Positions 4,907 through 59,100 of a DNA stretch of 64,000 bases are shown here, in pieces. The stretch's first letter is position 1. Each line of letters opens with the position of its first letter. Below the pieces are notes generated by a model. It was not told where the DNA came from, did not search any database, and was given only the letters and a program-made list of their open reading frames with translations. The stretch lies in NCBI RefSeq assembly GCF_053078305.1, contig NZ_CP166879.1, one strand, 5' to 3'. A program made the position numbers and the translations under genes.

Positions 4907-5287
4907 TTATGCCGCACGTTCATCCCGCACCGCTAACACCTCGGGCAAATTCAACTCAATCCAGTCCGCCAGTGCAGCAACCTTTTCGCTCACCTGCTCG
5001 CCCAGCGGCGTGAGGCTATATTCCACATGCGGCGGCACCACCGGATACGCGATACGGTTAAGAAAACCATCCTGCTCTAGCGCCTGTAACGACTGCGCAA
5101 GCATCTTTTCACTCACCCCGCCCATTTTGCGCCGCAGGTCGCTAAAGCGATGAGTACCTTCGCGTAGCGCCACCAGAATCAACACCCCCCAACGGCTGGT
5201 GACGTGTTTCAACACCTCGCGCGACGGGCACTGTTCCGCAAAGAGATTACCCTCTTTCAGTTGTTGCGACAGGCTAACCTGACTCAT
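4907..5287 (-). CDS. ytfH: HxlR-family transcriptional regulator YtfH
   Basis: ORF track 4907-5398 is a 5' over-extension; start set at MSQVSLSQQ (126 aa); HxlR-type winged-helix sequence; divergent from qorB. Confidence 0.88.
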   Translation of the reverse strand: MSQVSLSQQLKEGNLFAEQCPSREVLKHVTSRWGVLILVALREGTHRFSDLRRKMGGVSEKMLAQSLQALEQDGFLNRIAYPVVPPHVEYSLTPLGEQVSEKVAALADWIELNLPEVLAVRDERAA

Positions 5288-5375
5288 TTCATACTTACCT
5301 TTTTGTACGTACTTACTAAAAGTAAGTTTAGGTGTTAGCGTATTTAAACTCAAGACAAAACGATGGAGACTTCCC

Positions 5376-6236
5376 ATGATCGCTATTACTGGTGCCACTG
5401 GCCAACTTGGTCACTATGTTATTGAATCCTTGATGAAAACGGTTCCTGCCAGCCAAATAGTGGCTATCGTTCGTAATCCGGCAAAAGCCCAGGCCCTGGC
5501 AGCACAAGGCATTACCTTGCGTCAGGCTGACTACGGCGATGAAGCCGCACTGACATCTGCACTTCAGGGAGTGGAAAAACTACTGCTGATCTCTTCCAGC
5601 GAAGTGGGTCAACGTGCCCCGCAGCATCGTAATGTTATTAATGCCGCAAAGGCGGCTGGCGTGAAATTTATCGCTTATACCAGCCTGCTTCACGCGGATA
5701 AATCTCCGCTCGGCCTCGCCGATGAGCACATCGAGACGGAGAAAATGCTGGCTGATTCTGGCATCGTTTACACCCTACTGCGCAACGGCTGGTACAGCGA
5801 AAACTACCTCGCCAGCGCCCCGGCAGCACTGGAACACGGCGTATTTATCGGTGCGGCGGGCGATGGCAAAATCGCCTCAGCAACGCGGGCAGATTATGCG
5901 GCAGCTGCGGCACGCGTGATTAGCGAAGCCGGTCACGAAGGCAAGGTTTACGAACTGGCGGGCGATAGTGCCTGGACGTTGACACAGTTAGCGGCAGAGC
6001 TAACCAAACAGAGCGGCAAACAGGTTACCTATCAAAATCTGAGCGAAGCCGATTTCGCCGCGGCACTGAAAAGCGTCGGACTGCCCGACGGACTGGCGGA
6101 TATGCTGGCGGATTCTGACGTTGGCGCATCGAAAGGCGGTCTGTTTGATGACAGCAAAACGCTTAGCAAACTGATTGGCCGCCCAACGACAACGTTAGCC
6201 GAAAGCGTAAGCCATCTTTTTAATGTTAATAAATAG
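5376..6236 (+). CDS. qorB: NAD(P)H:quinone oxidoreductase QorB (NmrA-like)
   Basis: 286-aa ORF, N-terminal Rossmann motif ITGATGQLG; recognised as QorB/YtfG. Confidence 0.93.
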   Translation: MIAITGATGQLGHYVIESLMKTVPASQIVAIVRNPAKAQALAAQGITLRQADYGDEAALTSALQGVEKLLLISSSEVGQRAPQHRNVINAAKAAGVKFIAYTSLLHADKSPLGLADEHIETEKMLADSGIVYTLLRNGWYSENYLASAPAALEHGVFIGAAGDGKIASATRADYAAAAARVISEAGHEGKVYELAGDSAWTLTQLAAELTKQSGKQVTYQNLSEADFAAALKSVGLPDGLADMLADSDVGASKGGLFDDSKTLSKLIGRPTTTLAESVSHLFNVNK

Positions 6237-6334
6237 TTAATTAAAGTGGCATCCTCCCGCATCCTCTCTGATAATGACGGGATGCCGGGAGCAATCATGT
6301 CTGCTTCCTGAACTTTCTTCTGACAGATCAATGG

Positions 6335-7309
6335 ATGCCAGTAATGATTAGCGGCGTGCTGTACGCCCTGTTAGCAGGGTTGATGTGGGGGCTTATCTTT
6401 GTCGGGCCGTTGATCGTGCCGGAATACCCGGCGATGTTGCAGTCGATGGGGCGTTATCTGGCGTTAGGGTTAATTGCGCTACCCATCGCCTGGCTGGGAC
6501 GCGTGCGTCTGCGTCAGTTGGCGCGTCGCGACTGGCTTACCGCCTTGATGCTCACTATGATGGGCAACCTCATCTATTACTTCTGCCTTGCCAGTGCCAT
6601 TCAACGTACTGGCGCGCCTGTTTCCACGATGATTATCGGCACCCTGCCGGTGGTCATTCCTGTCTTTGCCAATCTGCTTTATAGCCAGCGCGACGGCAAA
6701 CTCGCGTGGGGAAAACTCGCCCCGGCACTGATTTGTATTGGCATCGGCCTGGCGTGTGTGAATATTGCTGAGTTAAACCACGGACTCCCCGATTTTGACT
6801 GGGCACGTTATACCTCTGGCATCGTGCTGGCGTTAGTTTCCGTGGTCTGCTGGGCGTGGTATGCCCTGCGCAACGCCCGCTGGCTGCGGGAAAATCCCGA
6901 CAAACATCCGATGATGTGGGCAACGGCGCAGGCGCTGGTCACACTGCCGGTTTCTCTCATCGGCTATCTCGTCGCTTGTTACTGGCTGAATACGCAAACG
7001 CCGGACTTCTCCCTACCCTTTGGCCCCCGTCCGCTGGTGTTTATTAGTCTGATGATTGCGATAGCCGTGCTTTGCTCATGGGTCGGCGCACTCTGCTGGA
7101 ACGTCGCCAGCCAGCGATTACCGACCGTGATTCTCGGGCCGCTGATTGTTTTCGAAACGCTGGCAGGTTTGCTGTACACCTTTTTACTCCGCCAGCAAAT
7201 GCCGCCGCTAATGACGCTGAGCGGTATCGCGCTGTTAGTGATTGGCGTGGTCATCGCGGTCAGAGCAAAACCAGAAAAACCTTTAACTGAATCTGTCTCA
7301 GAAAGTTGA
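6335..7309 (+). CDS. ytfF: EamA/DMT-family inner membrane transporter YtfF
   Basis: 324-aa ORF, very hydrophobic multi-TM protein; synteny. Confidence 0.85.
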   Translation: MPVMISGVLYALLAGLMWGLIFVGPLIVPEYPAMLQSMGRYLALGLIALPIAWLGRVRLRQLARRDWLTALMLTMMGNLIYYFCLASAIQRTGAPVSTMIIGTLPVVIPVFANLLYSQRDGKLAWGKLAPALICIGIGLACVNIAELNHGLPDFDWARYTSGIVLALVSVVCWAWYALRNARWLRENPDKHPMMWATAQALVTLPVSLIGYLVACYWLNTQTPDFSLPFGPRPLVFISLMIAIAVLCSWVGALCWNVASQRLPTVILGPLIVFETLAGLLYTFLLRQQMPPLMTLSGIALLVIGVVIAVRAKPEKPLTESVSES

Positions 7310-42752: not shown

Positions 42753-44300
42753 CTACTTGCGTAGCGATAAAATTGCCCGTGCGGTTTCAGCACGGTTATA
42801 GATCTGCATTTTTTTTATTGCAGCATCCACATCTTCACCGCTTTTCTTATTCAGTTTAATCAGAAACTCAACAGGTAATAGCGAAGCTAAATTTTCAAAT
42901 TTTGATTCAGACCAAGTAATGGTTGCAACAGCCCCTTCAGTTCTCTTAATCATTAGTTTTTTAAGTAATTCTAAACGCTCTGGCTCAACAGTTATATAAC
43001 CAATCGGCAGGGTTAATGCACTATCAGAATTAGGTTGACCGTGGTATTGCACCAAAGCAATCACATCAGGAATTAAGAGGATCTCCAAACGATCAAATTT
43101 AGCCTCTGAAGTAAGGCCAATACCGGTAGGAAAACGACCTAAGTGCCGCTTACGCTCTTGACGTTTTTCACCTTCATCTGCACTTGAGTGTAAAAGCGAA
43201 ATGCGAGCAATCTTATCATCGGCATAATTGCCAAGTATATCGCCTAGAGCGCGAGTAAAACGCGAAAGTTGACTACCATTAGCTCCCCACAGTGGTACTT
43301 TACTGCTATACCACAGCGCTTTTGGAGCTGTTTTACCTATATAATCACGTAATGCATTATGCAACATACTAATGAACAGCTTAGAATTGTGCGGCAAATA
43401 AACAGCCCCTAACATGCCGGTAGTCAATGAAGTACCGTAGCCAGTTTTACGTTGTTCACGAGCCTCTATCCAGCCGGAATAGTTGAACTTATAACCATTA
43501 GCAAATTGTAACAACACTTTATCATTTGCTAGTTTACAGAAATCTTCACAGTCGATACCGAATTCATCTAGTTTATGTTCTCCCAAAAAATCTGCGATAT
43601 GAGCTTCCAGCTCGTTTGAAAGCGGCAGCCGGGTGTTACCTAAATATTCATAGGAACGAGTAAATTTCTGCGGCTCAATGCTCCCAGCAGAAACACCGTA
43701 GCTAACCTCTATCTCTATTGGGAGCTGCACCATCTCATGCGAACTACAGCCCATTATCTTATATAATTTAGTCCGTTGACGCTCATACTCGCTGTTGCGG
43801 CTGAGCAAAAGATGGTGCCGAAACTGGGAACTAAAAGCCTCTGTTACCGCAGCAGCATCTCCCCCGATCTGATGCCGCGGCAATAGCTCTGGCAGTCCAG
43901 AAGTAAAACGACGATTTGGTTGCGGTTTACATATCGAAAGAGTTAGTAGATCGAATGCAACTTCCTCCGTACATTCTTGATATTTAACTAAACTTGGCTT
44001 CCCACCATTATTAGCTGCATGCTTACGTAGGAATGAGCTAGCCTCAATATGCCCATCAGGATTAATGTTGATCAGTCTGTTAGCCAGCAACCCATCAAGC
44101 AATACCTCTCGCTCACGATCAGTTAGACCAAAGTAATTCTGTAACTCGCTGGGATAGAGTTGATCAAAAATCAGCAGCAAGCGACATGCAAACTGTTCAA
44201 TTCCAGGCATCAGTTTTTCAGTGGTCAAAGCGCAGTTGATCTTGTAACTACGCGCAGGTAGTAAAACGGTAATCAGATTACCCAGACGTGGTTCTGACAT
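42753..44300 (-). CDS. Hypothetical 515-aa protein, translationally coupled partner of the NERD-kinase-helicase gene
   Basis: Long ORF with start ATG overlapping upstream TAA (TAATG); no recognisable motif by eye. Confidence 0.8.
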   Translation of the reverse strand: MSEPRLGNLITVLLPARSYKINCALTTEKLMPGIEQFACRLLLIFDQLYPSELQNYFGLTDREREVLLDGLLANRLININPDGHIEASSFLRKHAANNGGKPSLVKYQECTEEVAFDLLTLSICKPQPNRRFTSGLPELLPRHQIGGDAAAVTEAFSSQFRHHLLLSRNSEYERQRTKLYKIMGCSSHEMVQLPIEIEVSYGVSAGSIEPQKFTRSYEYLGNTRLPLSNELEAHIADFLGEHKLDEFGIDCEDFCKLANDKVLLQFANGYKFNYSGWIEAREQRKTGYGTSLTTGMLGAVYLPHNSKLFISMLHNALRDYIGKTAPKALWYSSKVPLWGANGSQLSRFTRALGDILGNYADDKIARISLLHSSADEGEKRQERKRHLGRFPTGIGLTSEAKFDRLEILLIPDVIALVQYHGQPNSDSALTLPIGYITVEPERLELLKKLMIKRTEGAVATITWSESKFENLASLLPVEFLIKLNKKSGEDVDAAIKKMQIYNRAETARAILSLRK

Positions 44301-47300
44301 TAGTTGTTATCTCCAAGCAGACTTTGACCACACAGGATTTGGTAGTTGGGTTCATCTACTGCAACCTGTTTACTAATAAATTCATGAACGTTTCCAAGTG
44401 CTGAATCATTATTGGTCTTTGACCACATACGCCTTGCTCCCAGAATCAATAACCTTTCTTGAGCTCGCGAAATAGCAACGTTTATTCGCGGCGCGTCGCG
44501 CAGGAAACCTTGTAGTTTGTTGGGATTATCGCGAACCAGACTGAGGATAATTATCTTGTTTTCCTGGCCCTGATATGAATCAACGGTATCGATCTTGATC
44601 AAACCACGTAACGATGCAGCCCATTCAGCCCGACTGATAGCATTGTCAATTTCCTCTTTTTGCTGACGATACATTGTGATTATACCAATAGGATATGGCT
44701 GTTCTGTGGTAATAGTTTGCTCAAGCTGTGCAATGCAGCCATCACTCGACAATGACTGCAAAGCCTCTAGCAGTAGCCGGACTTCTCGTTGATTATAGTA
44801 ACGACCATTACCCTTATGTTCTTCTGCACCTGCTTCATTAGGGCTCGAACTATCGATCCAAGTAACAGTTTTGTTCCAAGGGATTGGTAACTTGGAATAC
44901 CAATCTGGCGAGACTTTCCTCGATGAATGCAGTTTACCGATATCTTGAGCGTAAAAGCACTCCGATACTAACTCGCCAATTGGTTCTACCATTCGATATT
45001 GAGTATCGAGTGTTACGCCGCCTGTTGCTTTAAAAGCACGTTCAAAATCAGACTCATAAAAGATCCCTTTCCCGAGTTCTAATTTCTTAGAGGCTAACTT
45101 AAGATGCTGTTGATGATAGAATGGTGGCAATTGTTTATGATCCCCTACCAACAGCACCCGCTTGCCTGATTGCAGCGCTACCATCAATTCAGCAGCTTGT
45201 GCTCGGCCAGCCTCATCAACTATTACCCAATCAAAGCTGGACTCAGCTAGTTCTAGTCGACGATTCCCAACACCAACAAGAGTTCCACAAACCAATCGCT
45301 TACTTTTGAACATAAATCGATCAAATCCAGCCTCGCCGCCGCGTAATACATCCATCCACTCTTGGCTCATTTCCAATAGCTGCATAAAACGTTCAAGGTT
45401 CTCTGGATTGTTATAATTGTATTGTATGGCAACTTGCTCAGCCAACTGTCTTATCAAGGTTTCATCATAGACAAGAGTTTTCAGCAAGCTGTCATCGAAT
45501 ATTGAGTTAATAATTTCTTGTGTTCGCAGTTTAAGCTGATTGCTTTGTTCTAATAATTCAGCCAGTCGCTCTTGATGACTAATACTACTACTCTTTATTT
45601 GTTCTACTTTATCCAGCTCACGGCTATATTGGCCATATGTCACCATCAAGGGATTCAGCGTACGATGTAACTGACATAACTGTTGGACTAATAATGGGGC
45701 CATCCCTAGGCGCTTTCCTAGGGAGCTAACTCGCAGATCATATTCACGGTGAAATTTATGCTGAATCTGTCGCTGAAGAGCTTTAGTTGCAACACTTAGC
45801 ATACCCTCATCAATCATAAGTTCATTACCAATACGTACTGTATCCAGTTCCATTCCTTTCGTATGGCAGAGCTCTCGAGCCTTGATGGCTACATTATCAA
45901 CAGAGGCATGGGATTGCCCGACCAAAAGAATGTTATTCACACCGCAATGTTGATACAGATAGTGAATAAATTTTGAAATAAATGTTGTTTTACCTGTTCC
46001 AGGTGGTCCCTGCAGAACTCCAACTGGTCCAAACTCGACCAACTGTTGAAATGCCATTAGCTGCTGTTCATTAAAACGTTGTCCAGGCTGATCATAAAGT
46101 GCGCGTAATGTCTCCGCGGATGGCCGCGGTTGCATTTGCTGCATGCAGGGTTTCTGGTGGTAATCAAAATACTGTGGCAGATGCTGGATCTCTGCTTTGT
46201 TTTCAATTACCCGTTGAAGGGCTCTTTGACGCAACTCTCTTGATGATTTGTCACGGATCGATTCCAATTGTAGCTGGCTGCCGCTACTAATTCGCTTACG
46301 AGCAGCATCAAAATCAAAGCGAATAGCCAATAGACTCGGCGTAGTCTCACTTAGCTGCAATTCCCCTAATTGCACTGATTCACGCTTATCTTTAATATAA
46401 ACAATGATCTTATCATCAAGTTCAAAGCTGAGGTCAGCACCGGATTCCGTAGTATATGGGTAGAGTAAGCAACCACTCGGTGATTCCTGAAAGTCAGTAG
46501 AGTCGATGTTGACTATATCTCGTAGGTCTACTTCTGTATCAGATAATGCCTGCCATAACTCAATTGGGCTTGACTCACTACTATCGAAGTCATCTTCATC
46601 CATCTCTTGATTAGGATTAGCTCGCTCAATGATGGCATCAATTACTGGCTCGAGGTTAAACAGTAGTTCAATAAAAGTATTACGCTGATTAAGTGAGCCA
46701 CGTTGTAATGAAAGTTGAGTATTAATTTTAGCCTGGGAATATTTACCAGCCTTTATACTTTCTTCGATCGATAATCCTTTTTCATACACTATTCTATTAA
46801 TAGTGCGATTATCAGGATCTAAGTCTATCAATAGCCGCTCTCCTAGGCCAGTGATGTAACAACGCAATTCATGCGCAAAGCGTGGGTTAGATGACCAGTT
46901 ACATTGAAAATAATAGATCCCATCATTTTGTTCTAGAAGCTTCACTTCTTGCGGCCAATCATCTGTGCCCCAGCAAACAGGAATTACCTTATCCTGTGAC
47001 TCAGACGCCACAACTTGATTAATCTCAGCTTGTTCCGGTGCTCGAATTGACTGCAGCAAAGGATCGAGCGCGATAGGTATACCGTCAACGGTTTGTTTTG
47101 CGCGTTCTAGCTCAGCCTGCACCAGTACTGGCATATCTTCACTAAATAGCTCCTCCACCATACGATATACTGCAAAGCAATCTCGCCCAAAAGCATCAGT
47201 ACTTTCGGGATTCTCTGGCTGGTAGCGATTATCTGCAGTTAATTCATCACTGAATTCAAGCAATCCAATCAGAGTAATTACTGTCTGCTCCCCGACTTGT

Positions 47301-49258
47301 ACCAGCAGTTTCTCTGGGCAAAGATCTCCATGAGGTAACTGCTTTTCATGAAAAGCATGAATGGTGTTGATCAACTTTTCCGCAATTGTAAAACGTTGGG
47401 ATTGTACTAACACGTTCTCAGCAATAAACTGTGACCACGGTAGGCCATCCACATACTCGCTCACTACATACAAGCCGCCTTGTCCTAATAGTCCATAGGA
47501 CTGCACCTTAGGAGTTGGCAGATTTATATGCGTAAGCTTATCGATCCGTTGCTTAAAAGCGTGGATACGGCGGTTAACACCAGGTTGTTGAGGGGTCAAA
47601 ATAACACCATCCCACAATTTTACCTGCAGAGCTTTCCCACCTTGTTCACAGTGATAACTGATGCTGCCAGTCGTAGCAATAGCAGCAAGAGCAGAGTAAA
47701 CCATAGACAACTGTTCAGGAAGTGGAGGAAACTCAATTAACACACCAACGCTGTTCATCCCTTCGCGAAAGAATTTGTTTTGCTTTAATTCTTGATAAAT
47801 CTGGTTAGCTTCATCAAATTCTTGGCTATGTTCCTTAGTAGCTGCATTAAACTCATTGAGCATTATGTCCGCACGTGGAAAGCGTTTACTTGGCTCAAGG
47901 TTAAGAGCTTGCTCAAACCAGCTATTTAGAATACCGCTAAAAGGATCAGTTAATGGAGCTCTCCATTCAGGCATCTGTCCAGGAGTCAGTAATGATTCAC
48001 CTGCAAAACAAATACGATAAGCAATTACAGCCAACATGAATACATCTAGGCGATAGGGCTCAACTGCTTCTTCAAAAGCATCTTCGGGCAAAATATATGG
48101 AGCACTTTGCAATGTCGGACGCAATGACTCTAGGCTATTATGTCCCTCCAGTGAGGCTGCGCCAAAGCCAGTAACGACAATGCTCTTCTGATCCCCTGCG
48201 TACCATAGATTGTGCGGGTCAATATCACAATGACTGATACCCAAGCTATGTAATTCCGAGAATGGAGCTAATAATGCACGAACGCGATCAATACGCTCAG
48301 ATTTACTCCATCCGTCAGCTTCGCTATCTAGAATCTCATCTAATCGGCTAAAACTACGGCGTAACTCATACAGCTCACGGGCATCATCAGTTATATCCTC
48401 CTCGGATAGTTCCCTTACAGCACGCAACATATAATCCTGCATAGTTGCGCTGCCATGACGAACTAGGCGACCGACTCGAGTCTCACGCAGAGCTATCTCA
48501 GCCCACAATGTTTGCATTGCGTTTGCTACACCCAAGGCATCAAAGTTCCACTGCCGTAGCAGACCTCTGTGTTGACTATTGTCTTTGTGGGTAGCCCTGA
48601 ATTCGTTGTAGACCATGTGAGGGTGACTAAAGAATGGCTTATCGTTCGCAAGATAACCGCTTTCTTTTAGTGGCAAAGGCCTGACTTTTGGTCCTTCAAA
48701 GAAGGACTTAATTATAGGTAATGCCTCATCAGAATTTGGTCGAGGCTTTCCCCCTTCAAAAAGATGAAAAAAGTTAGTGTGTTGCACCAGCTTTTCGTAA
48801 TTTTTTGGGTTACCTATAGTCAAGAATTCATCACGGGTATGAACATAGCGCCTCTCACTTAATGGCAAGTTTTCAGGACCAGCTGTGCCACACAGCACTA
48901 CATGAGCCTCAACATGCAAAAAGTAACCCAGCTTACGAGATAACTCTTCCTGCAACAAATCTTTTAGTCGCAGTGCATGCTCACGCTTGATCTGATAGGG
49001 ACTTTTGCCTCGTGACTTACCATTTTGCAGCCACTTCCCCCCTTCAAATGTGATGTTACCATTCCACTCTTTAAGCTCGACTAATAGCAGACGGTCAGCA
49101 GTAATAATTAGCATATCGATTTCCATCGACCCTTGGCTATCAGTAACAACTAAGCCAGCATAGCCAAACCAACTATCTGGTAACTGCTTAACCATCATAT
49201 CAACTGTTTTGGTTTCGCTGCGGTGCAGGCCAGCACCACCTACTATCTGATACTTCAC
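44300..49258 (-). CDS. 1652-aa multidomain protein: N-terminal NERD-like nuclease domain, two protein-kinase-like domains, C-terminal SF1 (Upf1/DNA2-like) helicase
   Basis: NERD-like D...ELK region (aa ~45-65); kinase catalytic-loop-like HCDIDPHN (aa 343-350) and HGDLCPEK (aa 643-650); Walker A GPPGTGKTT (aa ~1084), Walker B VIVDEAG, SF1 motif TVDSYQGQE. Confidence 0.85.
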   Translation of the reverse strand: MKYQIVGGAGLHRSETKTVDMMVKQLPDSWFGYAGLVVTDSQGSMEIDMLIITADRLLLVELKEWNGNITFEGGKWLQNGKSRGKSPYQIKREHALRLKDLLQEELSRKLGYFLHVEAHVVLCGTAGPENLPLSERRYVHTRDEFLTIGNPKNYEKLVQHTNFFHLFEGGKPRPNSDEALPIIKSFFEGPKVRPLPLKESGYLANDKPFFSHPHMVYNEFRATHKDNSQHRGLLRQWNFDALGVANAMQTLWAEIALRETRVGRLVRHGSATMQDYMLRAVRELSEEDITDDARELYELRRSFSRLDEILDSEADGWSKSERIDRVRALLAPFSELHSLGISHCDIDPHNLWYAGDQKSIVVTGFGAASLEGHNSLESLRPTLQSAPYILPEDAFEEAVEPYRLDVFMLAVIAYRICFAGESLLTPGQMPEWRAPLTDPFSGILNSWFEQALNLEPSKRFPRADIMLNEFNAATKEHSQEFDEANQIYQELKQNKFFREGMNSVGVLIEFPPLPEQLSMVYSALAAIATTGSISYHCEQGGKALQVKLWDGVILTPQQPGVNRRIHAFKQRIDKLTHINLPTPKVQSYGLLGQGGLYVVSEYVDGLPWSQFIAENVLVQSQRFTIAEKLINTIHAFHEKQLPHGDLCPEKLLVQVGEQTVITLIGLLEFSDELTADNRYQPENPESTDAFGRDCFAVYRMVEELFSEDMPVLVQAELERAKQTVDGIPIALDPLLQSIRAPEQAEINQVVASESQDKVIPVCWGTDDWPQEVKLLEQNDGIYYFQCNWSSNPRFAHELRCYITGLGERLLIDLDPDNRTINRIVYEKGLSIEESIKAGKYSQAKINTQLSLQRGSLNQRNTFIELLFNLEPVIDAIIERANPNQEMDEDDFDSSESSPIELWQALSDTEVDLRDIVNIDSTDFQESPSGCLLYPYTTESGADLSFELDDKIIVYIKDKRESVQLGELQLSETTPSLLAIRFDFDAARKRISSGSQLQLESIRDKSSRELRQRALQRVIENKAEIQHLPQYFDYHQKPCMQQMQPRPSAETLRALYDQPGQRFNEQQLMAFQQLVEFGPVGVLQGPPGTGKTTFISKFIHYLYQHCGVNNILLVGQSHASVDNVAIKARELCHTKGMELDTVRIGNELMIDEGMLSVATKALQRQIQHKFHREYDLRVSSLGKRLGMAPLLVQQLCQLHRTLNPLMVTYGQYSRELDKVEQIKSSSISHQERLAELLEQSNQLKLRTQEIINSIFDDSLLKTLVYDETLIRQLAEQVAIQYNYNNPENLERFMQLLEMSQEWMDVLRGGEAGFDRFMFKSKRLVCGTLVGVGNRRLELAESSFDWVIVDEAGRAQAAELMVALQSGKRVLLVGDHKQLPPFYHQQHLKLASKKLELGKGIFYESDFERAFKATGGVTLDTQYRMVEPIGELVSECFYAQDIGKLHSSRKVSPDWYSKLPIPWNKTVTWIDSSSPNEAGAEEHKGNGRYYNQREVRLLLEALQSLSSDGCIAQLEQTITTEQPYPIGIITMYRQQKEEIDNAISRAEWAASLRGLIKIDTVDSYQGQENKIIILSLVRDNPNKLQGFLRDAPRINVAISRAQERLLILGARRMWSKTNNDSALGNVHEFISKQVAVDEPNYQILCGQSLLGDNN

Positions 49259-49725: not shown

Positions 49726-50353
49726 CTATTCGTTATAGTGTTCGAACGCCTCCGCAAGGTTTTTTACTGCCGTTAACACGTCCGGTTTAGGTATGATACT
49801 GATGTAATCGCTCTTCATCGTTTTCACGAACCGTTCTCTCATTCCATTACTCTGAGGGCTACTGACTGCCGTCGTGCAGAGCTCCAGATTCAACTCTCTG
49901 GCGAACTGCCGTGTTTCATGAGTTGTATAAGCCGAACCGTTATCGGTCAGCCACTGGATGGGCCATCCCGGTCTATCGCCAAAGCGTTTTTCTATCGCTC
50001 CTGACATGACATCCTGCACCGTTGCTTTGCCATAACCTCCCGTGCTTGCGGCCCAGTCTATGGATTCAAGATCGCAACAGTCCAGTGCGAACGTGACACG
50101 CAGTTTTTCGTCATCATCACAACCGAACTCAAAGCCATCGGCACACCAGCGCGGGTCGCTTTCCTTCACCGATATTCGGGCCTTTATGTTCCCTCTGCGG
50201 TCGTGAAGGTTTGTCATGTAATAACAACAGGTTATTCTCGCTCATTATTCGATAAACGCGATTTGCATTCACGAACTGCAGTCCTTCGTTAAGACTGCCG
50301 TCTGAGAATAGCCCAGACACGACGATAGCCATCGAATCGCTGAACAGCGTCAT
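49726..50353 (-). pseudogene. IS2-like (IS3 family) transposase OrfB remnant, frameshifted
   Basis: ORFs 49726-50217 and 50129-50353 together resemble IS2 InsD (NANRVYRIM..., [34 protein letters not shown]) in two frames. Confidence 0.6.
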
Positions 50354-50459
50354 TCGGCAGGCGATAAAGAAGGTGTCGTTACGGGGAAGTCATCTTCACA
50401 GAGATTTTCAGTCAGTTAGCATTACCGACATTCATTCACCAACTTACCGGAGATAATCA

Positions 50460-50789
50460 ATGTCAAAACCCCGATGGACCATTGAACAGAAAAGGCAGCA
50501 CGTTGCTGCCTGGCGCGCCAGTGGTCTTACACGTCAGCAATACTGTGAACTCAACGATATTCCCTTCACATCACTTCGCGAATGGCCGCAGGATGTCGCA
50601 AAAGCTGAACGCCGGGCAAATGAACCGACCGTTCTTCCCGTTCATATTGCGCCACCACTGCATGCTGATGTACCACAGCCCGTCACGAATGAGCCAGTCA
50701 CGCTCTTCCTTCCCGGCGGAGTACGGATGTGCTGTCAGCCGTCACAACTTACCGATGTCTTCAGGGCGCTCAAATATGCTCAGTCCTGA
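50460..50789 (+). CDS. IS66-family TnpA (orf1) of outer element
   Basis: 109-aa ORF followed by overlapping tnpB and tnpC in the canonical IS66 order. Confidence 0.7.
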   Translation: MSKPRWTIEQKRQHVAAWRASGLTRQQYCELNDIPFTSLREWPQDVAKAERRANEPTVLPVHIAPPLHADVPQPVTNEPVTLFLPGGVRMCCQPSQLTDVFRALKYAQS

Positions 50790-51168
50790 TAATGTCTTCA
50801 TCGCGATTAAACCTGTTGACATGCGCCGGGGCATCGACACACTGACGCAGTATATACAGGATGAACTCCGGTCGACATGGCATGAGGGAGCCGCCTTCGT
50901 CTTTGTTAACAAAGTCCGTTCGCGTATCAAAGTTCTCCGGTGGGATAAACACGGGGTGTGGTTGTGTACCCGCCGTCTGCACAAAGGCAGCTTCCGCTGG
51001 CCACGTGCAAATGATGCTGCCTGGCACCTCACTCCCGACGAGTTTAACTGGCTGATTGCCGGTGTTGACTGGCAGCAGGTTAAGGGACATGACCTGACGA
51101 AATGGGGCTGGCAGAATGAACCTGAACTGCGCCCTGAAAACACGCAAAATACACTGCTAACTCAGTGA
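50776..51168 (+). CDS. IS66-family TnpB (orf2) of outer element
   Basis: ORF 50482-51168; start set at MLSPDNVFIAIKPVDMRRG, paralogous to the TnpB at 52940-53290. Confidence 0.7.
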   Translation: MLSPDNVFIAIKPVDMRRGIDTLTQYIQDELRSTWHEGAAFVFVNKVRSRIKVLRWDKHGVWLCTRRLHKGSFRWPRANDAAWHLTPDEFNWLIAGVDWQQVKGHDLTKWGWQNEPELRPENTQNTLLTQ

Positions 51169-51174
51169 AAAATA

Positions 51175-51265
51175 ATGAATATCCGTATCCGGAGTGGTAT
51201 ACTCCCCTGTATGGATATCTCCGCTCTCAACACCACGAATGACATCGAAAAACTGCGTGCTATGG
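51175..51265 (+). pseudogene. IS66-family tnpC of outer element, 5' part (interrupted by nested IS66 insertion)
   Basis: ATG at 51175; reading frame continues exactly across the insertion into 53807-55320 when one copy of the 8-bp duplication is removed. Confidence 0.7.
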
Positions 51266-51295
51266 GTAAGCGTCAACGGAGCACCGTATTGACGC

Positions 51296-52909
51296 TTATT
51301 TATTGGTGAGTACTACGTTCCATGGCAGGAGTTCATCAACTCGGTTGGAAGGCCATTCTGGCAGTACGCTCAGGATATGGCGCAGATACGCTTCCGGATC
51401 GATACCGTTCAGACGGCAGGTGCCGATCAGCCCGTACAACAGTGCTCCACGCTCGCCGCCGTGATCGCTGCCAAAGAACATAAAGTTTTTCTTTCCGAGA
51501 CAGACTGCACGAAGCGCTCTTTCCGCAGCATTATTATCCGCCTCCGCCAGACCGTCATCACTGTAATAACAGAGGGCATCCCACTGATTCAGTACATAGC
51601 TGAACGCTTCGCCCAGTCTGGATTTTTTCGACAGCGTACCATTCTTCTCCACCATCCATTCATGCAGTGACGTCAGTAACACTTTGCTTCGCTGCTGCCT
51701 GACGGCAAGACGCTCTGACTCCGGTAATCCCCGTATTTCATCCTCGATGGCGTACAGTTCACTGATTCGCTTCAGGGCTTCTTCTGCCGTCGCACTTTTG
51801 CTGCTGATGTATACATCGTGGATTTTTCGCCGGGCATGGGCCCAGCACGCAACTTCTGTCAGTGCACCACCTTCACGTTCTGCACTGAACAGCCGATCGT
51901 AACCGCTGAACGCATCCGCCTGCAGGATACCCCGGAAGGGACGAAGGTGTTGTACCGGATGTTTTCCCTGCCTGTCTGGTGAGTAGGCGAACCAGACCGC
52001 CGGTGGCTCTGATGAGCCCGCATTCCGGTCATCCCGGACATACGTCCAGATGCGTCCTGTTTTTGCCTTTTTTCTGCCCGCTGCCAGCACTTTTACTGGT
52101 GTGTCGTCAGTGTGAACCTTGCGGGTGTTCATCACGTAACGGTACAGGGTATCATTCAGCAGAGTCATTAACTGACAACATGCGTCAACCCAGTTGGAGA
52201 GTAATGCCCGGCTCAGTTCGATGCCCTGGCGGGCAAAGATTTCACTCTGACGATACAGTGGCAGGTGTTCGCAGTATTTTCCCGTTAACACGCGGGCAAG
52301 TAATCCGGAGCCCGCGATGCCGCGCTCTATCGGGCGGGACGGCGCTGGCGCTTCAACTATACAGTCACATTTTGTACAGGCTTTTTTTACCCGAACAGTG
52401 CGGATCACTTTCAGGGCGCTACTCACCAGTTCCAGCTGCTCAGCACTGACTTCCCCCAGATAATCCAGCTCACTGCCACACTCCGGGCAACAACTTTCTT
52501 CAGGCTCCAGACGGTGTATTTCACGGGGAAGATGTGCCGGTAACGGACGACGATGACGTGACTGTCGCAACTGGCGGGGAACCTGCGGGTCATCCTCACG
52601 CCCACTGTAACGATCGCTTTCCTGTTCGCGTTGTTTCAGTTGGGCCTCAGCCTGTTCAACCTCACGCTGCAGTTTTTCAGAACGGGTACCGAACAACATC
52701 CGGCGCAGTTTTTCTATCTGGGCCCTCAGATGTTCTATTTCCCGCTCCTCCTCTTCGATCTTTTCCTCGGCACGTGCCAGTGCAGAGCGCAGGAAGGCCT
52801 CCGTCTCTTCAACCAGACTCAGTTGCTGATCTTTCTGACGGAGGGCTTCAGCCTGCTCAGAGAGCAGCCTTTCCAGCTCAGTGATACGAATGAGGTATTT
52901 CCGACTCAT
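51296..52909 (-). CDS. IS66-family transposase TnpC
   Basis: 537-aa ORF with N-terminal coiled-coil, CPECG zinc-finger-like motif and DDE region. Confidence 0.9.
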   Translation of the reverse strand: MSRKYLIRITELERLLSEQAEALRQKDQQLSLVEETEAFLRSALARAEEKIEEEEREIEHLRAQIEKLRRMLFGTRSEKLQREVEQAEAQLKQREQESDRYSGREDDPQVPRQLRQSRHRRPLPAHLPREIHRLEPEESCCPECGSELDYLGEVSAEQLELVSSALKVIRTVRVKKACTKCDCIVEAPAPSRPIERGIAGSGLLARVLTGKYCEHLPLYRQSEIFARQGIELSRALLSNWVDACCQLMTLLNDTLYRYVMNTRKVHTDDTPVKVLAAGRKKAKTGRIWTYVRDDRNAGSSEPPAVWFAYSPDRQGKHPVQHLRPFRGILQADAFSGYDRLFSAEREGGALTEVACWAHARRKIHDVYISSKSATAEEALKRISELYAIEDEIRGLPESERLAVRQQRSKVLLTSLHEWMVEKNGTLSKKSRLGEAFSYVLNQWDALCYYSDDGLAEADNNAAERALRAVCLGKKNFMFFGSDHGGERGALLYGLIGTCRLNGIDPEAYLRHILSVLPEWPSNRVDELLPWNVVLTNK

Positions 52910-52939
52910 GACCGTTTTTATAATCCGGCCATGACATTT

Positions 52940-53290
52940 TTACAACATTGTCAGTGCATTAAGGCGGGATGTTTTGGGCTGACGCCAGTCCAGTTTATCG
53001 AGGAGCATTGCCAGCTGCGAGCGGGTAATGGATACCTTACCGTCACGCACCGCAGGCCAGATAAACTGGCCTTCCTCCAGACGTTTGGTGAACAGGCACA
53101 GACCATCAGCATCAGCCCACAGAATTTTAATCGTGTCACCCCGTCGGCCGCGAAAGATAAACAGGTGACCGGAGAAGGGGTTCTCATCCAGCACATGTTG
53201 TACCTGTTCTCCCAGACCGTTGAAGGATTTACGCATATCAGTAACGCCGGCAACCAGCCAGATTCGAGTGCCTGATGGGAGCGAGATCAT
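52940..53290 (-). CDS. IS66-family TnpB (orf2)
   Basis: 116-aa ORF MISLPSGTRIWLVAGVTDMRKSFNGL..., typical IS66 orf2. Confidence 0.88.
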   Translation of the reverse strand: MISLPSGTRIWLVAGVTDMRKSFNGLGEQVQHVLDENPFSGHLFIFRGRRGDTIKILWADADGLCLFTKRLEEGQFIWPAVRDGKVSITRSQLAMLLDKLDWRQPKTSRLNALTML

Positions 53291-53712
53291 CGTCCCCTCC
53301 CGGTCAGTTCACGGATCAACACCGTGAGCAGCTCTGGTGAAGGATTTTCCAGCGTCATGTTACCGTGGCGGAACTCAACTTTACAGGAACTGGCACTGAC
53401 TGTGCTTTGTGAAGGAGTGGATAAAAGCGGAGTAAGAGCCGCCACAGGCTCTTTCTGCTCATCAGGCGTTATCTCAACAGGTAATAATTCAACGCCAGCG
53501 CCAGAAGAGGTTGTTACCGGAAGACGCCGCGATATACGCCCTTCGTTCTGCCAGAGCCTGAGCCATTTGAACAGGAGGTTATCATTGATATCGTGTTCCC
53601 GGGCAATACGGGCAACAGAGGCTCCTGGTTGTGAAGCCAGTTTAACCATTTGAAGTTTAAACTCATTTGAAAATGATCTGCGGGGTTCTGAGGATAATAT
53701 TTTCTGTTCCAT
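53287..53712 (-). CDS. IS66-family TnpA (orf1)
   Basis: 141-aa ORF overlapping tnpB start by 4 nt. Confidence 0.85.
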   Translation of the reverse strand: MEQKILSSEPRRSFSNEFKLQMVKLASQPGASVARIAREHDINDNLLFKWLRLWQNEGRISRRLPVTTSSGAGVELLPVEITPDEQKEPVAALTPLLSTPSQSTVSASSCKVEFRHGNMTLENPSPELLTVLIRELTGRGR

Positions 53713-53798
53713 AACAGGTGTCCACTAGTTGAAAAGGTGGGCACCTACGTTACCAATACTGGCTTAATGGCTACATACGGCGGTCAGTTTACGCTTAC

Positions 53799-55320
53799 TG
53801 CTATGGCACTTACCATGGTACAAAAAGTCATGTCGGAGAATGCCGAAAAAGAGCGGGAATTACTGGAGAAAAGCCGGCGCATCCAGCTTCTGGAAGAAAT
53901 GCTGAAACTGGTTCGTCAACAGCGCTTCGGTAAAAAATGTGAAACGCTGGCTGGTATGCAACGCTCCCTGTTCGAAGAGGATGTTGATGTCGATATCGCC
54001 GCGCTTACCGCACATCTGGATAAACTGCTCCCGCAATCCCCTGAAGAAGACGAAAAAGCGTCCCGTTCACGCCCGATACGCAAACCCTTACCGGCTCATC
54101 TTCCACGGGTGGAAAAAATTATCCAGCCGGACACTGACCATTGCCCTGAATGTGACGAGCCGCTGCACTATATCCGTGATGCGGTGAGTGAAAAGCTGGA
54201 GTATATTCCCGTTCACTTCGTGGTGAACCGTTATGTCCGTCCGCAATACAGTTGTCCCTGTTGCCAGAAGGTGTTCAGCGGTGAAATGCCGGCACATATC
54301 CTCCCGAAAAGTGCCGTTGAGCCATCAGTCATCGCACAGGTGATCATCAATAAATACGGTGACCACCTGCCTCTGTATCGCCAGCAGCACATTTTCTCCC
54401 GAATGGGGGTGGAGCTCCCCGTCAGTACAATGGCGGATAGGGTCGGTGTTGCTGGCGCTGCACTGGCCCCGCTGGCAAAATTGTTACGCCACGAGCTTCT
54501 GACACGGGATGTTATTCATGCCGATGAAACGTCCCTGAGGCTCCCTGATACCCGGAAAGGCGGTAAATCCTGCTCCGGCTGGCTGTGGGCTTACGTCAGC
54601 GGAGAAAGAAGCAGTCCGCCGGTCGTCTGTTTTGACTCGCAGACCGGACGGGCCCTCAGATATCCTGAGGCCTGGCTGCAGGGCTGGTGTGGCGGTACGC
54701 TGGTGAGTGACGGATACAGCGTGTACAAATCTCTGGCGGATAATGACCCCGGTATTACATCTGCCTGTTGCTGGAGCCACGCAAGGCGCGGTTTCGCAAA
54801 TCTGTATAAGGCCAGCAGGGAGCCCCGTGCAGCCATGGCGCTGAGAAAAATCGCGGGTCTTTATCGCATTGAGAAGTTCATCCGTGAACGTCCTGTGGAA
54901 AAAATACGGCAATGGCGACAACGGTATTCCCGGCCGATAGTGAATGACCTGTTTGCCTGGCCTGAAGAGCAGGAGCCGTGCTGTCCGCCCGACGGACCAC
55001 TAAACAAAGCGATTAATTATATCCTGAACCGGCGCGATGAACTGAGCTGCTTCCTGAGTGACGGAGCCGTGCCCCTGGACAACAATATCTGCGAGCGTGC
55101 TATCCGCCCGGTCGTTATGGGACGAAAGGCCTGGTTGTTCGCCGGTTCACTGATGGCCGGAAACCGCGCGGCACAGATAATGAGCCTTCTGGAAACGGCA
55201 AAACGTAATGGTCTGGAGCCACATGCCTGGCTGACAGACGTCCTGGCGCGTCTGCCGGAATGGCCAGAGGAGCGACTGGCAGAGTTGCTGCCTCTTGAGG
55301 GATTTACCTTCTCCGGGTGA
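53799..55320 (+). pseudogene. IS66-family tnpC of outer element, 3' part
   Basis: ORF 53737-55320 in frame with 51175-51265 across the nested insertion; CPECDEP zinc-finger-like motif and DDE region. Confidence 0.75.
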
Positions 55321-55921
55321 GTGATACCTGCCGTCAGGTGTTCGTGCACCGGGCCATAACCTGCAGTCGGGAGTTGAACTCCTGACGACAGGAAATGAGC
55401 CAGACCAGCAACCACACGGGCTGACAGCGAATAAGAACCTGAATCAGCCCGGAGTCATTCCCGGGTCAGTACATCATCACCTGCCATTAATCCCCGAGTC
55501 AGTACTTCGCGGCCTGACGCGATCACCCTACTCAGTACTTCAGAGCCCGCCTCCGGTACCTGCCTGGCGATCGCCCCTGTGCAACAAAATAAATCAACCG
55601 TTATCAGACCACGATCGTTCGTATGCGCCGCCGATGACGCGCGCCTGAAAAACGCGTCAATATGAGTTCCCCGGAAGCTTACGGAAAAGTTGAAGATCAT
55701 GCTGTTTATTTTCATCTGTATTGTCACCAGTCAGCATATGCCCCGGTCCCCGATTAGGTTGCGTGTTTTCATGGAAGGAGAGCGCCCAATAACCTCTATT
55801 GAGATTGGAGTTACTCACCGATCACTTCCACAGTAATACGCACATTACCATCATTCCTGATGGCATTGACCAGGAACATAACTACCAATAAAAATTCCCC
55901 AAAGTTGAAGTTACCGTAAGC

Positions 55922-56197
55922 CTATTTTTTATCTTCTTTTCTTTCTTGTAACTTTGCTTTTATCCAAATACCAATCCCTGCTAACATACCAGCCCCTCCC
56001 CCCACCTTTAAAGAATAAATAATATCTGCCCTCCAATCAAAAAATAAAACTTGAGTTTTAGAAAAAACTATCAGTCTACCAAGAATAGTACCTAACATTG
56101 CCATAAAAAAGATGCAAGCTATGCAGCGCATTATTAGTATGATAAGAATGTAAAAGTTGACACTCTTATTTATTTTTAATGGATTTATCAGCTTCAT
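55922..56197 (-). CDS. cdiI: Putative CdiI immunity protein (small polytopic membrane protein)
   Basis: 91-aa hydrophobic ORF immediately downstream of and overlapping the cdiA 3' end; start may be an internal Met. Confidence 0.6.
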   Translation of the reverse strand: MKLINPLKINKSVNFYILIILIMRCIACIFFMAMLGTILGRLIVFSKTQVLFFDWRADIIYSLKVGGGAGMLAGIGIWIKAKLQERKEDKK

Positions 56198-59100
56198 CTA
56201 GTGTTCCTTTTGTTACATTCCCGATAGCTTCACCAGTAATTGTTCCCCCAATATTACCAATAATATCAGATGTTCCCTCTTTGACAGTAGAGCCCATTGA
56301 CCCCGAGATGACTTTCCCTATACCGCCACCAAATACTGAACCTAATCCTGTCCCAATAACTGAATTTGTCGGATCCTCGCCTTTAATACTACTACCAATT
56401 GCCGCGCCGCTCATGTTGATAGGAGTTGAGACGATGATGCCTTTACCGGTTGTAGCTGCAGCTGTCACCCCAGCCATTATCGCATCCACATAACTGAAAG
56501 GACCTTTTCCAGCAAGCTGAGCAGCTGAGTTTACGCTGATACCAATTGCTGCATTAGTCGCCATACCTTTCACTGTTAACCCCAGTACGCTTCCTCCAAA
56601 CAACAAAGGAGCATCACCAATACTTGCATTAGATTTATGATACCCCCAGGTATTCATAATGCTTTGAGCCTTTGCCATTGCTTCAGTATCAGGGTTACGT
56701 TTTATATAGTCCTGTCCTGACAGTAACCCGGTAACAAGCTCCTGTGCCACCGCTGTACCGTACTCCTTTTCCATTTCTGAAGCATATACACGCAAGTAAG
56801 CTGCCAGTTCAGCACGTTCTGCGCTGTTTAATTGTGAAGGATCTTTATTAAATTTGGATACCAGAGCATCACTACGTTTATCTGCATTTTCCAGCTTAAT
56901 CAGCTCATTAGCAGTGGCTAATGTCTTATCGCCGTTCCTGATTTTCTCAATGGCTTTATCCAGTTTGTCAGAAGATGTCGCTCCCAGAAAGTTATTCTCA
57001 ACAGTCGTCTTACCTGACTGTGCGCCGGCTACCGCTGAAGCCCCCGAGTTGCCCACCAGACCACCGGCCAGGCCGGCAGCAACCGTTGCCAGTGTCGAGA
57101 CCGTCTGCTTCTCTGTCTCGCTCAGTTCACTCACCGGCTTACCGTACATCTGTGTGGCTATCATTCCCACCACCTCGCCGGTGGCAGCCCCTGCGGCACC
57201 GGCAAGGGCATTATTTCCCTGTGCCACCGCCAGCGCGGCATTCACAACCGCATGGGCGGCCACACGCCCCGCACCGTCCGGGGTGTTATTTTTGATTATT
57301 TCTGCAATGTACGGCGCAGCACCACCTGCCAGGGCTGCACTCAGATTACCACCGGCCAGTCCCTGTACCGCTGCCGTTGCAGCCTGTATCGCCTGCTGGT
57401 ATTTGCCTCCCGTTCCAAAACCGGAGGCTGCCATACCGTTATTGTAGGCCCGCTGTGCCACATCCTGTTCCGTGAACGGTTTTCCTGCTGCCTCAAGCTC
57501 CGCACGGGCCTGATTCAGTGCTGCCGGGTCCCGCTTCGCTTTCTCACCGGCTATCTGTCCTTCCGTTCTGGCAATATCTGCCACCTGGTTACCAATCTCA
57601 CCAATGAGTTGCGCCTGCTGCAGTCGCTGCTGCTCTTTTTCCCTGTCAAAGATGGGGGACAGCGTCTGATTTGCATGTGCTGCGTCACGGTTCAGGTCTG
57701 CCACATCCTGTTTCTGGCTCTGCGTATCCCGGATGGTGATATTCCCGGCAGACACTGCCGACTGCGTGGTACTGTCCGCATGGCCTTCATGATTTGCACC
57801 GACCAGCAGATTGTTTGCCATGTTCCCCAGGAAATTTCCAGCAACACTGCCACCGGTACTGAGCCCTGTACTCTGATGTTCCGTTTTAAAGTCGGCCCGG
57901 TTTTCAATGTCACTGAAGCCCAGTGTGCCGGTATCCAGCCTGTTTTTATCTGCCGTTGCCGTGGACGCAATCACCGCACCGTTCAGTTGCGTATGCTGTC
58001 CGGTGGTGACATCAAACCCGCCCCTGCCGGCAAAAATCCCCGTCTGCTCCTGTACACTGTCGTAGTTACTGTGCATTTTATCCCGGCTGAGGTTCACACT
58101 CGCCGAACCGCTCATGGACCCGAAAATGAAGCTGCCTCCGGCGCTGGCATTCTGCTGCTTACTGTCATAACGGTCACTGTCCTGCTCACTGGTCAGTGTC
58201 AGATGACGACCGGCATCCACTTTCACCGTTTCACCGCCAGCCTGCGCGCCGGTAAGCGTGGTGTCCCGCCCGCTGATAATGGTCAGCCGGTTTCCCGCAT
58301 CCACCGTGGTTTCTGTATGGGTGGTACCGTTGCCTTTTTCACTGCCCTTACCCTGGTTTGCGCTGGCTGAAACACTGATACCCCAGCCTCCGGAGCCCAC
58401 ACCAACACCGACACCCACGCTGCCACCACTGGATGTGTTCTTTCCTTCCAGCTTTGACGTGTTTTCTGCTGATACCAGATTCACGTCACGGTTTGCCTGC
58501 AGCAGAACGTTGTTCCCGGCCTTTATCTGACTGCCCTGTATCGTCAGGTCACCATCCACGCCCTTCACGCCGGAGCCGGTGGCCTGAATACTGAGGTTAT
58601 TACCTGCGGTCAGTGTACTGCCCTTCGCCACCGTCTGCTCTGACTGCTGTTCTGATTTCGAAGACTGGCTGCCGTAAGAGAGGCTGATGCCCACCGTGTT
58701 ATTATTTCCGGCATCGGCTCCCTGCGCGTCTGCCAGTCGTCCGGCCTGCACGGCCTGAGCCCCCGAGAGCGCGGCCTTCACCCCCTGCAGGGCTTCAAGC
58801 CGGCTGTTTCCGGCAGATTTCGCCGCCTGTACGGTCTCCACCGTCGTATTCAGGGCGCTGCCCGCTGTGCCGGACAGGGCAAGCGTCAGACCGGAGGTTT
58901 TCTGCTCCACCGTATGTGTCTGTACATGCTGGTCTGTGGCGGCGGTAATGCTGACCTCCTTACCGCTGAGTGCCATGTCCCTGCCGGCAATCAGGTCAGA
59001 GCCGTTGACGGTCAACCGGTTACCTGCCTGAAGGGAAACATCACCGTGAACACTCCCCACCGTGCTGCCTTTCTGTGTGGTGTCTGTTGCGGTGTCCGTG

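Follow-up and report, generated by a model that had tools for sequence, protein, structure and literature searches.

The three TCAGTAC-centred repeats that lie beside the cdi locus are almost certainly an old and diverged tandem triplication of a 33-bp unit, which forms part of an IS66-family insertion sequence and lies in the non-coding segment at its right end; they travel with the insertion sequence and are unrelated to the cdi locus. The window, i.e. the whole stretch of 64,000 nucleotides that was analysed, carries this element as an outer copy interrupted by a second IS66-family element (Table 1). An earlier note had described three imperfect repeats of about 30 bp between the end of an IS66 element and cdiI. 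The repeats are present as placed, and the self-match of the tail at a lag of 33 bp exceeds that of shuffled sequences. Their location has to be revised: the insertion sequence ends at 55682 and not at the tnpC stop codon at 55320, and the repeats are part of the element itself.

Table 1. Features of the outer IS66-family element and of the adjoining cdi-locus DNA (window coordinates)
Feature	Coordinates	Strand	Basis or remark
Left inverted repeat (IRL) of the outer element, GTGTCGTTACGGGGAAGTCATCTTCAC	50373-50399	+	Homology to independent copies starts here and flanks differ before; pairs with the right end
Outer tnpA, 109 aa	50460-50789	+	ORF; annotated IS66 TnpA in E. coli RM8082 (L001); weak HTH_Tnp_1
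Outer tnpB (IS66 Orf2-like accessory protein)	50776-51168	+	Coordinates mapped from L001 4000-4392
5' stub of outer tnpC	51175-51265	+	Cut by the nested IS682-like element
Nested IS682-like IS66-family element (tnpA/tnpB/tnpC)	51266-53798	-	8-bp duplication TGCTATGG at 51258-51265 and 53799-53806
3' part of outer tnpC (DDE_Tnp_IS66)	53799-55320	+	Stop codon 55318-55320; mosaic of two deep clades
Non-coding tail of the outer IS, 362 bp	55321-55682	+	From the tnpC stop to the IRR tip
Hairpin just 3' of the tnpC stop	55327-55392	+	17-nt arms, 88% complementary; RNA fold z = -3.25
Repeat unit 1 (U1)	55459-55491	+	Core TCAGTAC at 55466
Repeat unit 2 (U2)	55492-55524	+	Core TCAGTAC at 55499; best-conserved 15-nt window in the tail (0.96)
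Repeat unit 3 (U3)	55525-55557	+	Core TCAGTAC at 55532; conservation 0.91
Nearly invariant AT-rich block CAAAATAAATCAACC	55585-55599	+	Followed by an invariant GATC at 55612-55615
Right inverted repeat (IRR), true right end of the outer IS, GTCAATATGAGTTCCCCGGAAGCTTAC	55656-55682	+	Reverse complement begins GTAAGC
Native cdi-locus intergenic DNA, 3' of cdiI	55683-55921	.	98.5% identity over 518 bp in 34 genomes (together with cdiI)
Putative cdiI, 91 aa, membrane-like	55922-56197	-	Directly downstream of cdiA

Boundaries and identity of the outer element

The right boundary was established by comparison with independent copies. In a megablast search of 55321-55921 against complete Escherichia coli genomes, only the first 362 bases matched, at up to 100% identity. 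These bases are 100% identical to positions 6001-6362 of the E. coli RM8082 locus (L001), where they lie directly 3' of an intact tnpA-tnpB-tnpC operon annotated by PGAP as IS66 family and where the element ends with ...CCCCGGAAGCTTAC, followed by unrelated DNA. More than ten independent copies are homologous precisely up to ...TTAC at 55682, and their flanks differ from the next base on. The region thus matches a known IS end, an outcome that the earlier note had named as refuting its observation. One of its candidates, the unidentified right end of the outer element, holds for 55321-55682, which is identical to the tail of the intact element and is closed by an inverted repeat, and fails for 55683-55921, which is cdi-locus DNA.

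The terminal inverted repeats of IS66-family elements measure about 20-30 bp and begin with GTAAGC(G/A). The IRL matches the IRR, read as its reverse complement GTAAGCTTCCGGGGAACTCATATTGAC, at 17 of 26 positions. It starts with GTGTCG in this lineage, off the canonical start, and with GTAATG in the copy from the ETEC4063 plasmid (L003). The tail was also considered as an internal duplication or as captured DNA of the window, and only the IRL/IRR pairing was found.

When the intact RM8082 element is blasted against the window it falls into two pieces, 50373-51265 (97.5% identity) and 53799-55682, which overlap by 8 bp; the outer element was therefore split by the nested IS682-like element. The latter belongs to the same protein family as the nested element annotated IS682 in O157/O145 genomes.

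The outer element is a member of the IS66 family by its genes, its protein domains and its inverted repeats. The tnpA and tnpB genes precede tnpC, a trio annotated by PGAP in RM8082. The intact tnpC orthologue of that genome (L001 4399-5997) confirms the DDE transposase (PF03050, E=1.9e-88) and also matches the zf-IS66, LZ_Tnp_IS66 and DDE_Tnp_IS66_C domains of Pfam, and its tnpB orthologue matches TnpB_IS66 (E=3.4e-34). The outer TnpA matches HTH_Tnp_1 with E=0.0043 and 17.7 bits, below the Pfam cutoff of 24.1. Intact copies of elements of this type measure about 2.77 kb, and the one of RM8082 spans 2766 bp (L001 3597-6362). PGAP names the outer element only 'IS66 family'; IS683 is no more than a guess at its name. 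Plasmid pHNSHP45 (KP347127) is said to carry IS683.

No 8-bp target-site duplication was detected around the four copies inspected (window, L001, L003 and L088). In the window, the flanks TAAAGAAG (50365-50372) and GGAAAAGT (55683-55690) do not match. The missing duplication may reflect a rearrangement that followed insertion, e.g. an adjacent deletion, and does not disprove membership of the family.

Several observations were made in passing on the neighbourhood of such elements. In O157:H7 and O145 genomes (L089 and L090), IS682 interrupts an outer element of this kind at another position, so IS66-type elements seem to land in one another repeatedly. In the ter island of the same loci (3334-3510; O157:H7 TR01 and O145 RM11626-C1), an outer-type right end ...GGAACAATAC is directly followed by a second, partial tail that begins exactly at the unit-3 core (CTCAGTTCTTCAG...) and extends to an IRR of its own. 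As the DNA to the left of the insertion sequence is from the terW side, this arrangement is not a simple nested insertion. In the window, positions 53720-53811 gave a sub-threshold Rfam match to the AfaR sRNA (34.8 bits against a gathering threshold of 100, E=0.0025), which covers the left end of the IS682-like element and its junction with outer tnpC. To the left of the outer element, an ORF of 1652 aa on the minus strand (44300-49258) has a NERD/kinase-like region at its N-terminus and, at its C-terminus, a superfamily-1 helicase-like region carrying a GPPGTGKT motif. It adjoins an IS3-type integrase fragment (49726-50217) and could be a defence-type gene.

The repeat array

A repeat search returned three copies of the TCAGTAC core, whose start-to-start spacing is exactly 33 and 33 bp. 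The sequences around the cores are CCCGGGTCAGTACATC (55460-55475), CCCCGAGTCAGTACTTC (55492-55508) and CCCTACTCAGTACTTC (55526-55541). Taken over their full 33 bp, the units are identical to one another at 19-20 of 33 positions (58-61%). A lag of 33 gives the best 66-nt self-match in the tail, with 43 matches of 66. Among 1000 dinucleotide-preserving shuffles the mean was 30.5 (sd 1.4) and the maximum 37, so that none of the 1000 reached 43. TRF does not detect the array, as its units fall short of 70% identity.

Paralogous units differ by about 40%, orthologous units by at most about 14%. Since the paralogous units are far more diverged than the orthologous ones, the triplication is older than all sampled tails, most of which keep the three-unit state.

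Distribution and variation of the tail

In a distant-mode search, matches to the tail were found in 2826 of 5426 complete E. coli genomes, with some 4000 copies in all, and the tail is also present in Escherichia and Shigella plasmids. The same array thus occurs away from any cdi context in thousands of genomes, including K-12, plasmids and the ter island. In K-12 (L086 3671-4293), a 293-bp remnant of the tail with a single unit lies behind a decayed TnpC C-terminus (109-aa ORF), between an eptA-like pseudogene and insG/IS4, and the tail is unannotated in RefSeq. The 109-aa ORF is presumably yjgZ.

The number of units varies from three in most copies to two (L005 and L091, by a clean deletion of one unit) and one (K-12). 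The two-unit variant occupies different sites, on chromosomes and on plasmids, in about ten genomes, and one strain has it both on a plasmid and on its chromosome, which makes a requirement for three units improbable. Spacing and cores vary as well. A 7-bp insertion between U2 and U3 in L004 and L092 breaks the 33-bp phase, and the intact L003 copy retains a perfect TCAGTAC in just one core out of three.

In sister elements the distance from the tnpC stop to the end of the insertion sequence is only about 20-30 bp (about 30 bp for the IS682-like element of the window; ISEc8 in L002), and the outer-type subgroup carries some 330 extra non-coding bp by comparison with IS682 and ISEc8. A scan of species representatives returned only two close relatives, the others being about 25% identical. 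The long tail characterises a narrow Escherichia/Shigella subgroup. Strong repeats 3' of tnpC were found at two of 56 distant IS66-family loci, possibly outside the insertion sequence. These loci come from a Fibrobacteria MAG and an unclassified MAG (L084, about 3458-3560, and L080, about 3287-3390); their direct repeats have periods of 46 and 42 bp (z 17.5 and 7.5) and sit 150-240 bp 3' of tnpC.

Constraint and mosaicism

The tnpC genes of these elements form two deep clades that differ at four-fold sites by p of about 0.48-0.52, and the tails compared across these clades differ by only 0.11-0.14. As the inverted repeats differ by 0.11-0.26, the tail is equally or more conserved than the ends themselves. 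Along a 15-nt conservation profile, the peaks fall on the cores of U2 and U3 and on the AT-rich block CAAAATAAATCAACC / AAATAAATCAACC (0.93), and the IRR scores 0.74-0.83. The mean score is 0.883 in the core columns and 0.763 in the other columns of the tail (Mann-Whitney p=0.0004); of 5000 randomly drawn triples of windows, 44 scored as high as the cores. This pattern would suggest that selection acts on the unit cores.

Without L087 and L093, the two most divergent tails, the enrichment is lost (0.885 against 0.828, p=0.07). In the most divergent tails U2 and U3 are nearly intact and the 5' halves have drifted. The elements are also mosaic. The outer tnpC of the window (53799-55320) is a recombinant in which the first 230 or so aligned codons are of the RM8082 type (pS 0-0.16) and the rest is of the ETEC4063-plasmid type (pS 0-0.07), the two parental clades differing at pS of about 0.65-0.75; the tail is again identical to that of RM8082. 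Divergence of the tail is consequently decoupled from that of tnpC, as is seen between the window and L003, which differ by 0.024 at four-fold sites of tnpC and by 0.123 in the tail. Because of this mosaicism, the low divergence of the tail could reflect recombination and not selection; given also the loss of core enrichment without L087 and L093, selection on the cores is at most suggested.

The cdi-locus side

Beyond the insertion sequence, the DNA up to cdiI is the native spacer of the cdi locus. In strain SMN013SH2 (L002), the equivalent of 55683-55921 separates a small immunity-like ORF from a DUF2569 gene, which is followed by the orphan pair cdiA-o11/cdiI-o11. A related IS66 right end lies about 35 bp past cdiI-o11 in that strain, in the same orientation (L002 2099-2747). 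Given this right end and the outer insertion sequence devoid of a target duplication, an IS-adjacent deletion is plausible, through which the genome of the window would have lost the DUF2569 gene together with the orphan pair cdiA-o11/cdiI-o11. The putative cdiI corresponds to a 91-aa ORF in both the window and L002 (5239-5514), and RefSeq annotates only a 60-aa version (5239-5421) in SMN013SH2.

The earlier note had also proposed that the repeats belong to a degraded orphan cdiA-CT/cdiI module. This reading, extended to any other feature of the cdi locus, has next to no chance of being right. It has in its favour the position of the array beside cdiI and the orphan modules that related strains carry further downstream. 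The IS boundary at 55682 refutes it: the repeats fall within the insertion sequence and are present in thousands of genomes outside any cdi context, and the other 239 bp are the normal spacer 3' of this cdiI. Similarity searches for CDI remnants agree, as tblastn of CdiA, CdiI, CdiA-o11, CdiI-o11 and the DUF2569 protein against 55321-55921 returned only chance matches of 11 residues, and the local ORFs of this stretch have no Pfam match.

Coding and RNA signals in the tail

A small or antisense protein gene could in principle account for the array, the 33-bp period corresponding to an 11-residue peptide repeat (EVLSRVIASGR / EVLTRGLMAGD). Some copies of the tail contain open frames of 107-119 codons on both strands, PGAP calls 'hypothetical proteins' of 47-75 aa in it, and the deletion of a unit in L005 is in frame. 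Nevertheless, substitutions among the copies have no codon periodicity (chi-square p 0.17-0.97) and the stops differ: the one at 55452-55454 is shared by the window, L001 and L088 and is absent from L003 and L089. Other copies of the tail carry indels of 7, 11, 2 and 1 nt that break the frame, the minus-strand frame of the window has no start codon inside the insertion sequence, and the tail frames have no Pfam match. Coding was thus rejected for either strand, in line with the earlier note, which had seen no convincing ORF in the repeat region. The small-protein reading is already largely refuted and is very improbable.

An RNA element appears improbable too, though less so. Under this reading the tail, repeats included, would act as RNA, either as the structured 3' UTR of the tnpC mRNA or as an antisense RNA or sRNA. 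Some other IS families have right-end RNAs, and the position of the tail may be likened to theirs. The hairpin that directly follows the tnpC stop is conserved, its stem being kept with a different loop in L004 and L092, and is possibly an RNA or DNA structure. By contrast, the predicted folding of the repeats is no better than that of shuffled sequences, with z of -0.35 and 0.04 for the two strands, RNAalifold yields a positive covariation term (+3.69), i.e. covariation support is absent, and a Rfam search of 50300-56300 gave no match apart from one that is unrelated and below threshold. Nor were promoter-like or terminator-like sites found in the tail. The array was therefore rejected as an RNA structure as far as the repeats are concerned.

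Terminal-site signals

By eye, the CCCCG-N6-TAC pattern of the units resembles the tip of the IRR, which would make of them pseudo-ends. Scored with a PWM built from 12 variants of the inverted repeat, U1 and U2 rank 9-10 among chance-level matches and U3 is unscored, and this candidate was rejected. No conserved counterpart of the array was found at the left end, where the only similarity is TCAGTCAGT in one lineage, absent from L003, and where there is no conserved shared 8-mer. An IHF site near AAATCAACC, also considered by eye, was discarded as an imperfect match that is not conserved.

A cis-acting array or a neutral passenger

The reading that is tentatively preferred, at somewhat less than an even chance, is that the array is a phased, right-end-specific, cis-acting DNA element bound by a protein of the insertion sequence or by a host factor. 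As 33 bp correspond to about three helical turns, the three sites would lie roughly on one face of the helix. The binder might be the IS-encoded HTH protein TnpA, the zinc-finger/leucine-zipper N-terminus of TnpC or a host factor, and binding would help to mark, assemble or regulate the right end during transposition. This cis-acting reading is favoured because the subgroup keeps a long tail that is absent in its relatives, because the three-unit state predates the sampled tails and because the cores are best kept in the most divergent copies. The exact phasing of the units, a tail that is conserved at least as well as the inverted repeats, and the absence of coding signals and of RNA signals in the array also count in its favour. 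A protein-binding array had been among the candidates of the earlier note as well, and such binding is putative here. A narrower version, in which the array and the AAATAAATCAACC/GATC block form an undescribed, right-end-specific candidate binding platform for TnpA/TnpB or for the N-terminus of TnpC, is rather unlikely. In the searchable literature on the ends, tails and binding sites of IS66 elements no description of such an array was found. Against a cis-acting array stand the fragile core enrichment, the mosaicism, the variable number of units, the mutated cores of the intact L003 copy, the broken phase of L004 and L092, the lack of likeness to the inverted repeats and of a left-end counterpart, and the rarity of arrays 3' of tnpC in the family at large (two of 56 distant loci).

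Most of these facts also speak for a neutral passenger, which comes out nearly tied with the cis-acting array and slightly behind it. The triplication would have arisen once, by slippage or unequal crossover, in an ancestral tail with which it has hitch-hiked since, its conservation being due to recent spread and recombination. A copy number that is polymorphic (3, 2, 1) through deletions placed exactly between units, a two-unit variant present at several genomic sites, cores mutated in intact copies and a tolerated 7-bp insertion are all as expected from such a passenger, as are the core enrichment that vanishes with L087 and L093, the extensive mosaicism and the decoupling of tail from tnpC divergence, and units that match neither the inverted repeats nor the left end. 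It accounts less well for the persistence of a 362-bp tail with three units in tnpC clades whose synonymous sites are saturated, in insertion sequences that are compact and whose sister elements are almost tail-less, or for the most divergent tails, where U2 and U3 are nearly unchanged despite drift in the 5' half.

Comparison with known systems and significance

The outer element shares its gene trio and domains with the IS66-family elements IS682, ISEc8 and IS679, and its right end GTAAGC... is like the GTAAGCG of IS682. It departs from IS682 and ISEc8 by the 362-bp tail that separates tnpC from the IRR and contains the hairpin and the array of three 33-bp units. It also differs by a left inverted repeat that starts with GTGTCG and by the lack of an 8-bp duplication at four copies, in contrast with the nested IS682-like element, which has one.

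The ends of Tn7, with the TnsB sites, and of phage Mu, with R1-R3 and L1-L3, carry several subterminal sites; the internal ones are similar to the terminal site, and both ends have them. The array may be compared with them in that it consists of several directly repeated short sites, regularly spaced inside one end in an end-asymmetric arrangement. In contrast with the Tn7 and Mu sites, its units resemble no inverted repeat and have no counterpart at the left end, and binding is only putative. With VNTRs that result from slippage or unequal recombination it shares a number of units of 3, 2 or 1 and breakpoints in register with the units; unlike them it is part of a mobile element and not of a host locus. 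The units are only about 60% alike, hence the array is old and mostly stable. With the orphan cdiA-CT/cdiI modules of CDI systems the array shares only its neighbourhood, downstream of cdiA-cdiI, and a CdiA-CT/CdiI coding remnant is absent.

For annotation, the repeats are to be read as cargo-free tail DNA of an insertion sequence and not as a remnant of a toxin or immunity gene. As the outer insertion sequence runs 362 bp past the stop codon of its transposase, the cdi locus ends at 55683. In thousands of E. coli genomes, K-12 included, the tail is unannotated or given spurious 'hypothetical protein' calls. Overall, it is ordinary and widespread IS DNA with a small undescribed detail. If the array is not a protein-binding platform, this detail is an ordinary decayed tandem repeat; if it is one, it would offer a cis-acting handle on the poorly understood end recognition and transposition of the three-gene IS66 elements.
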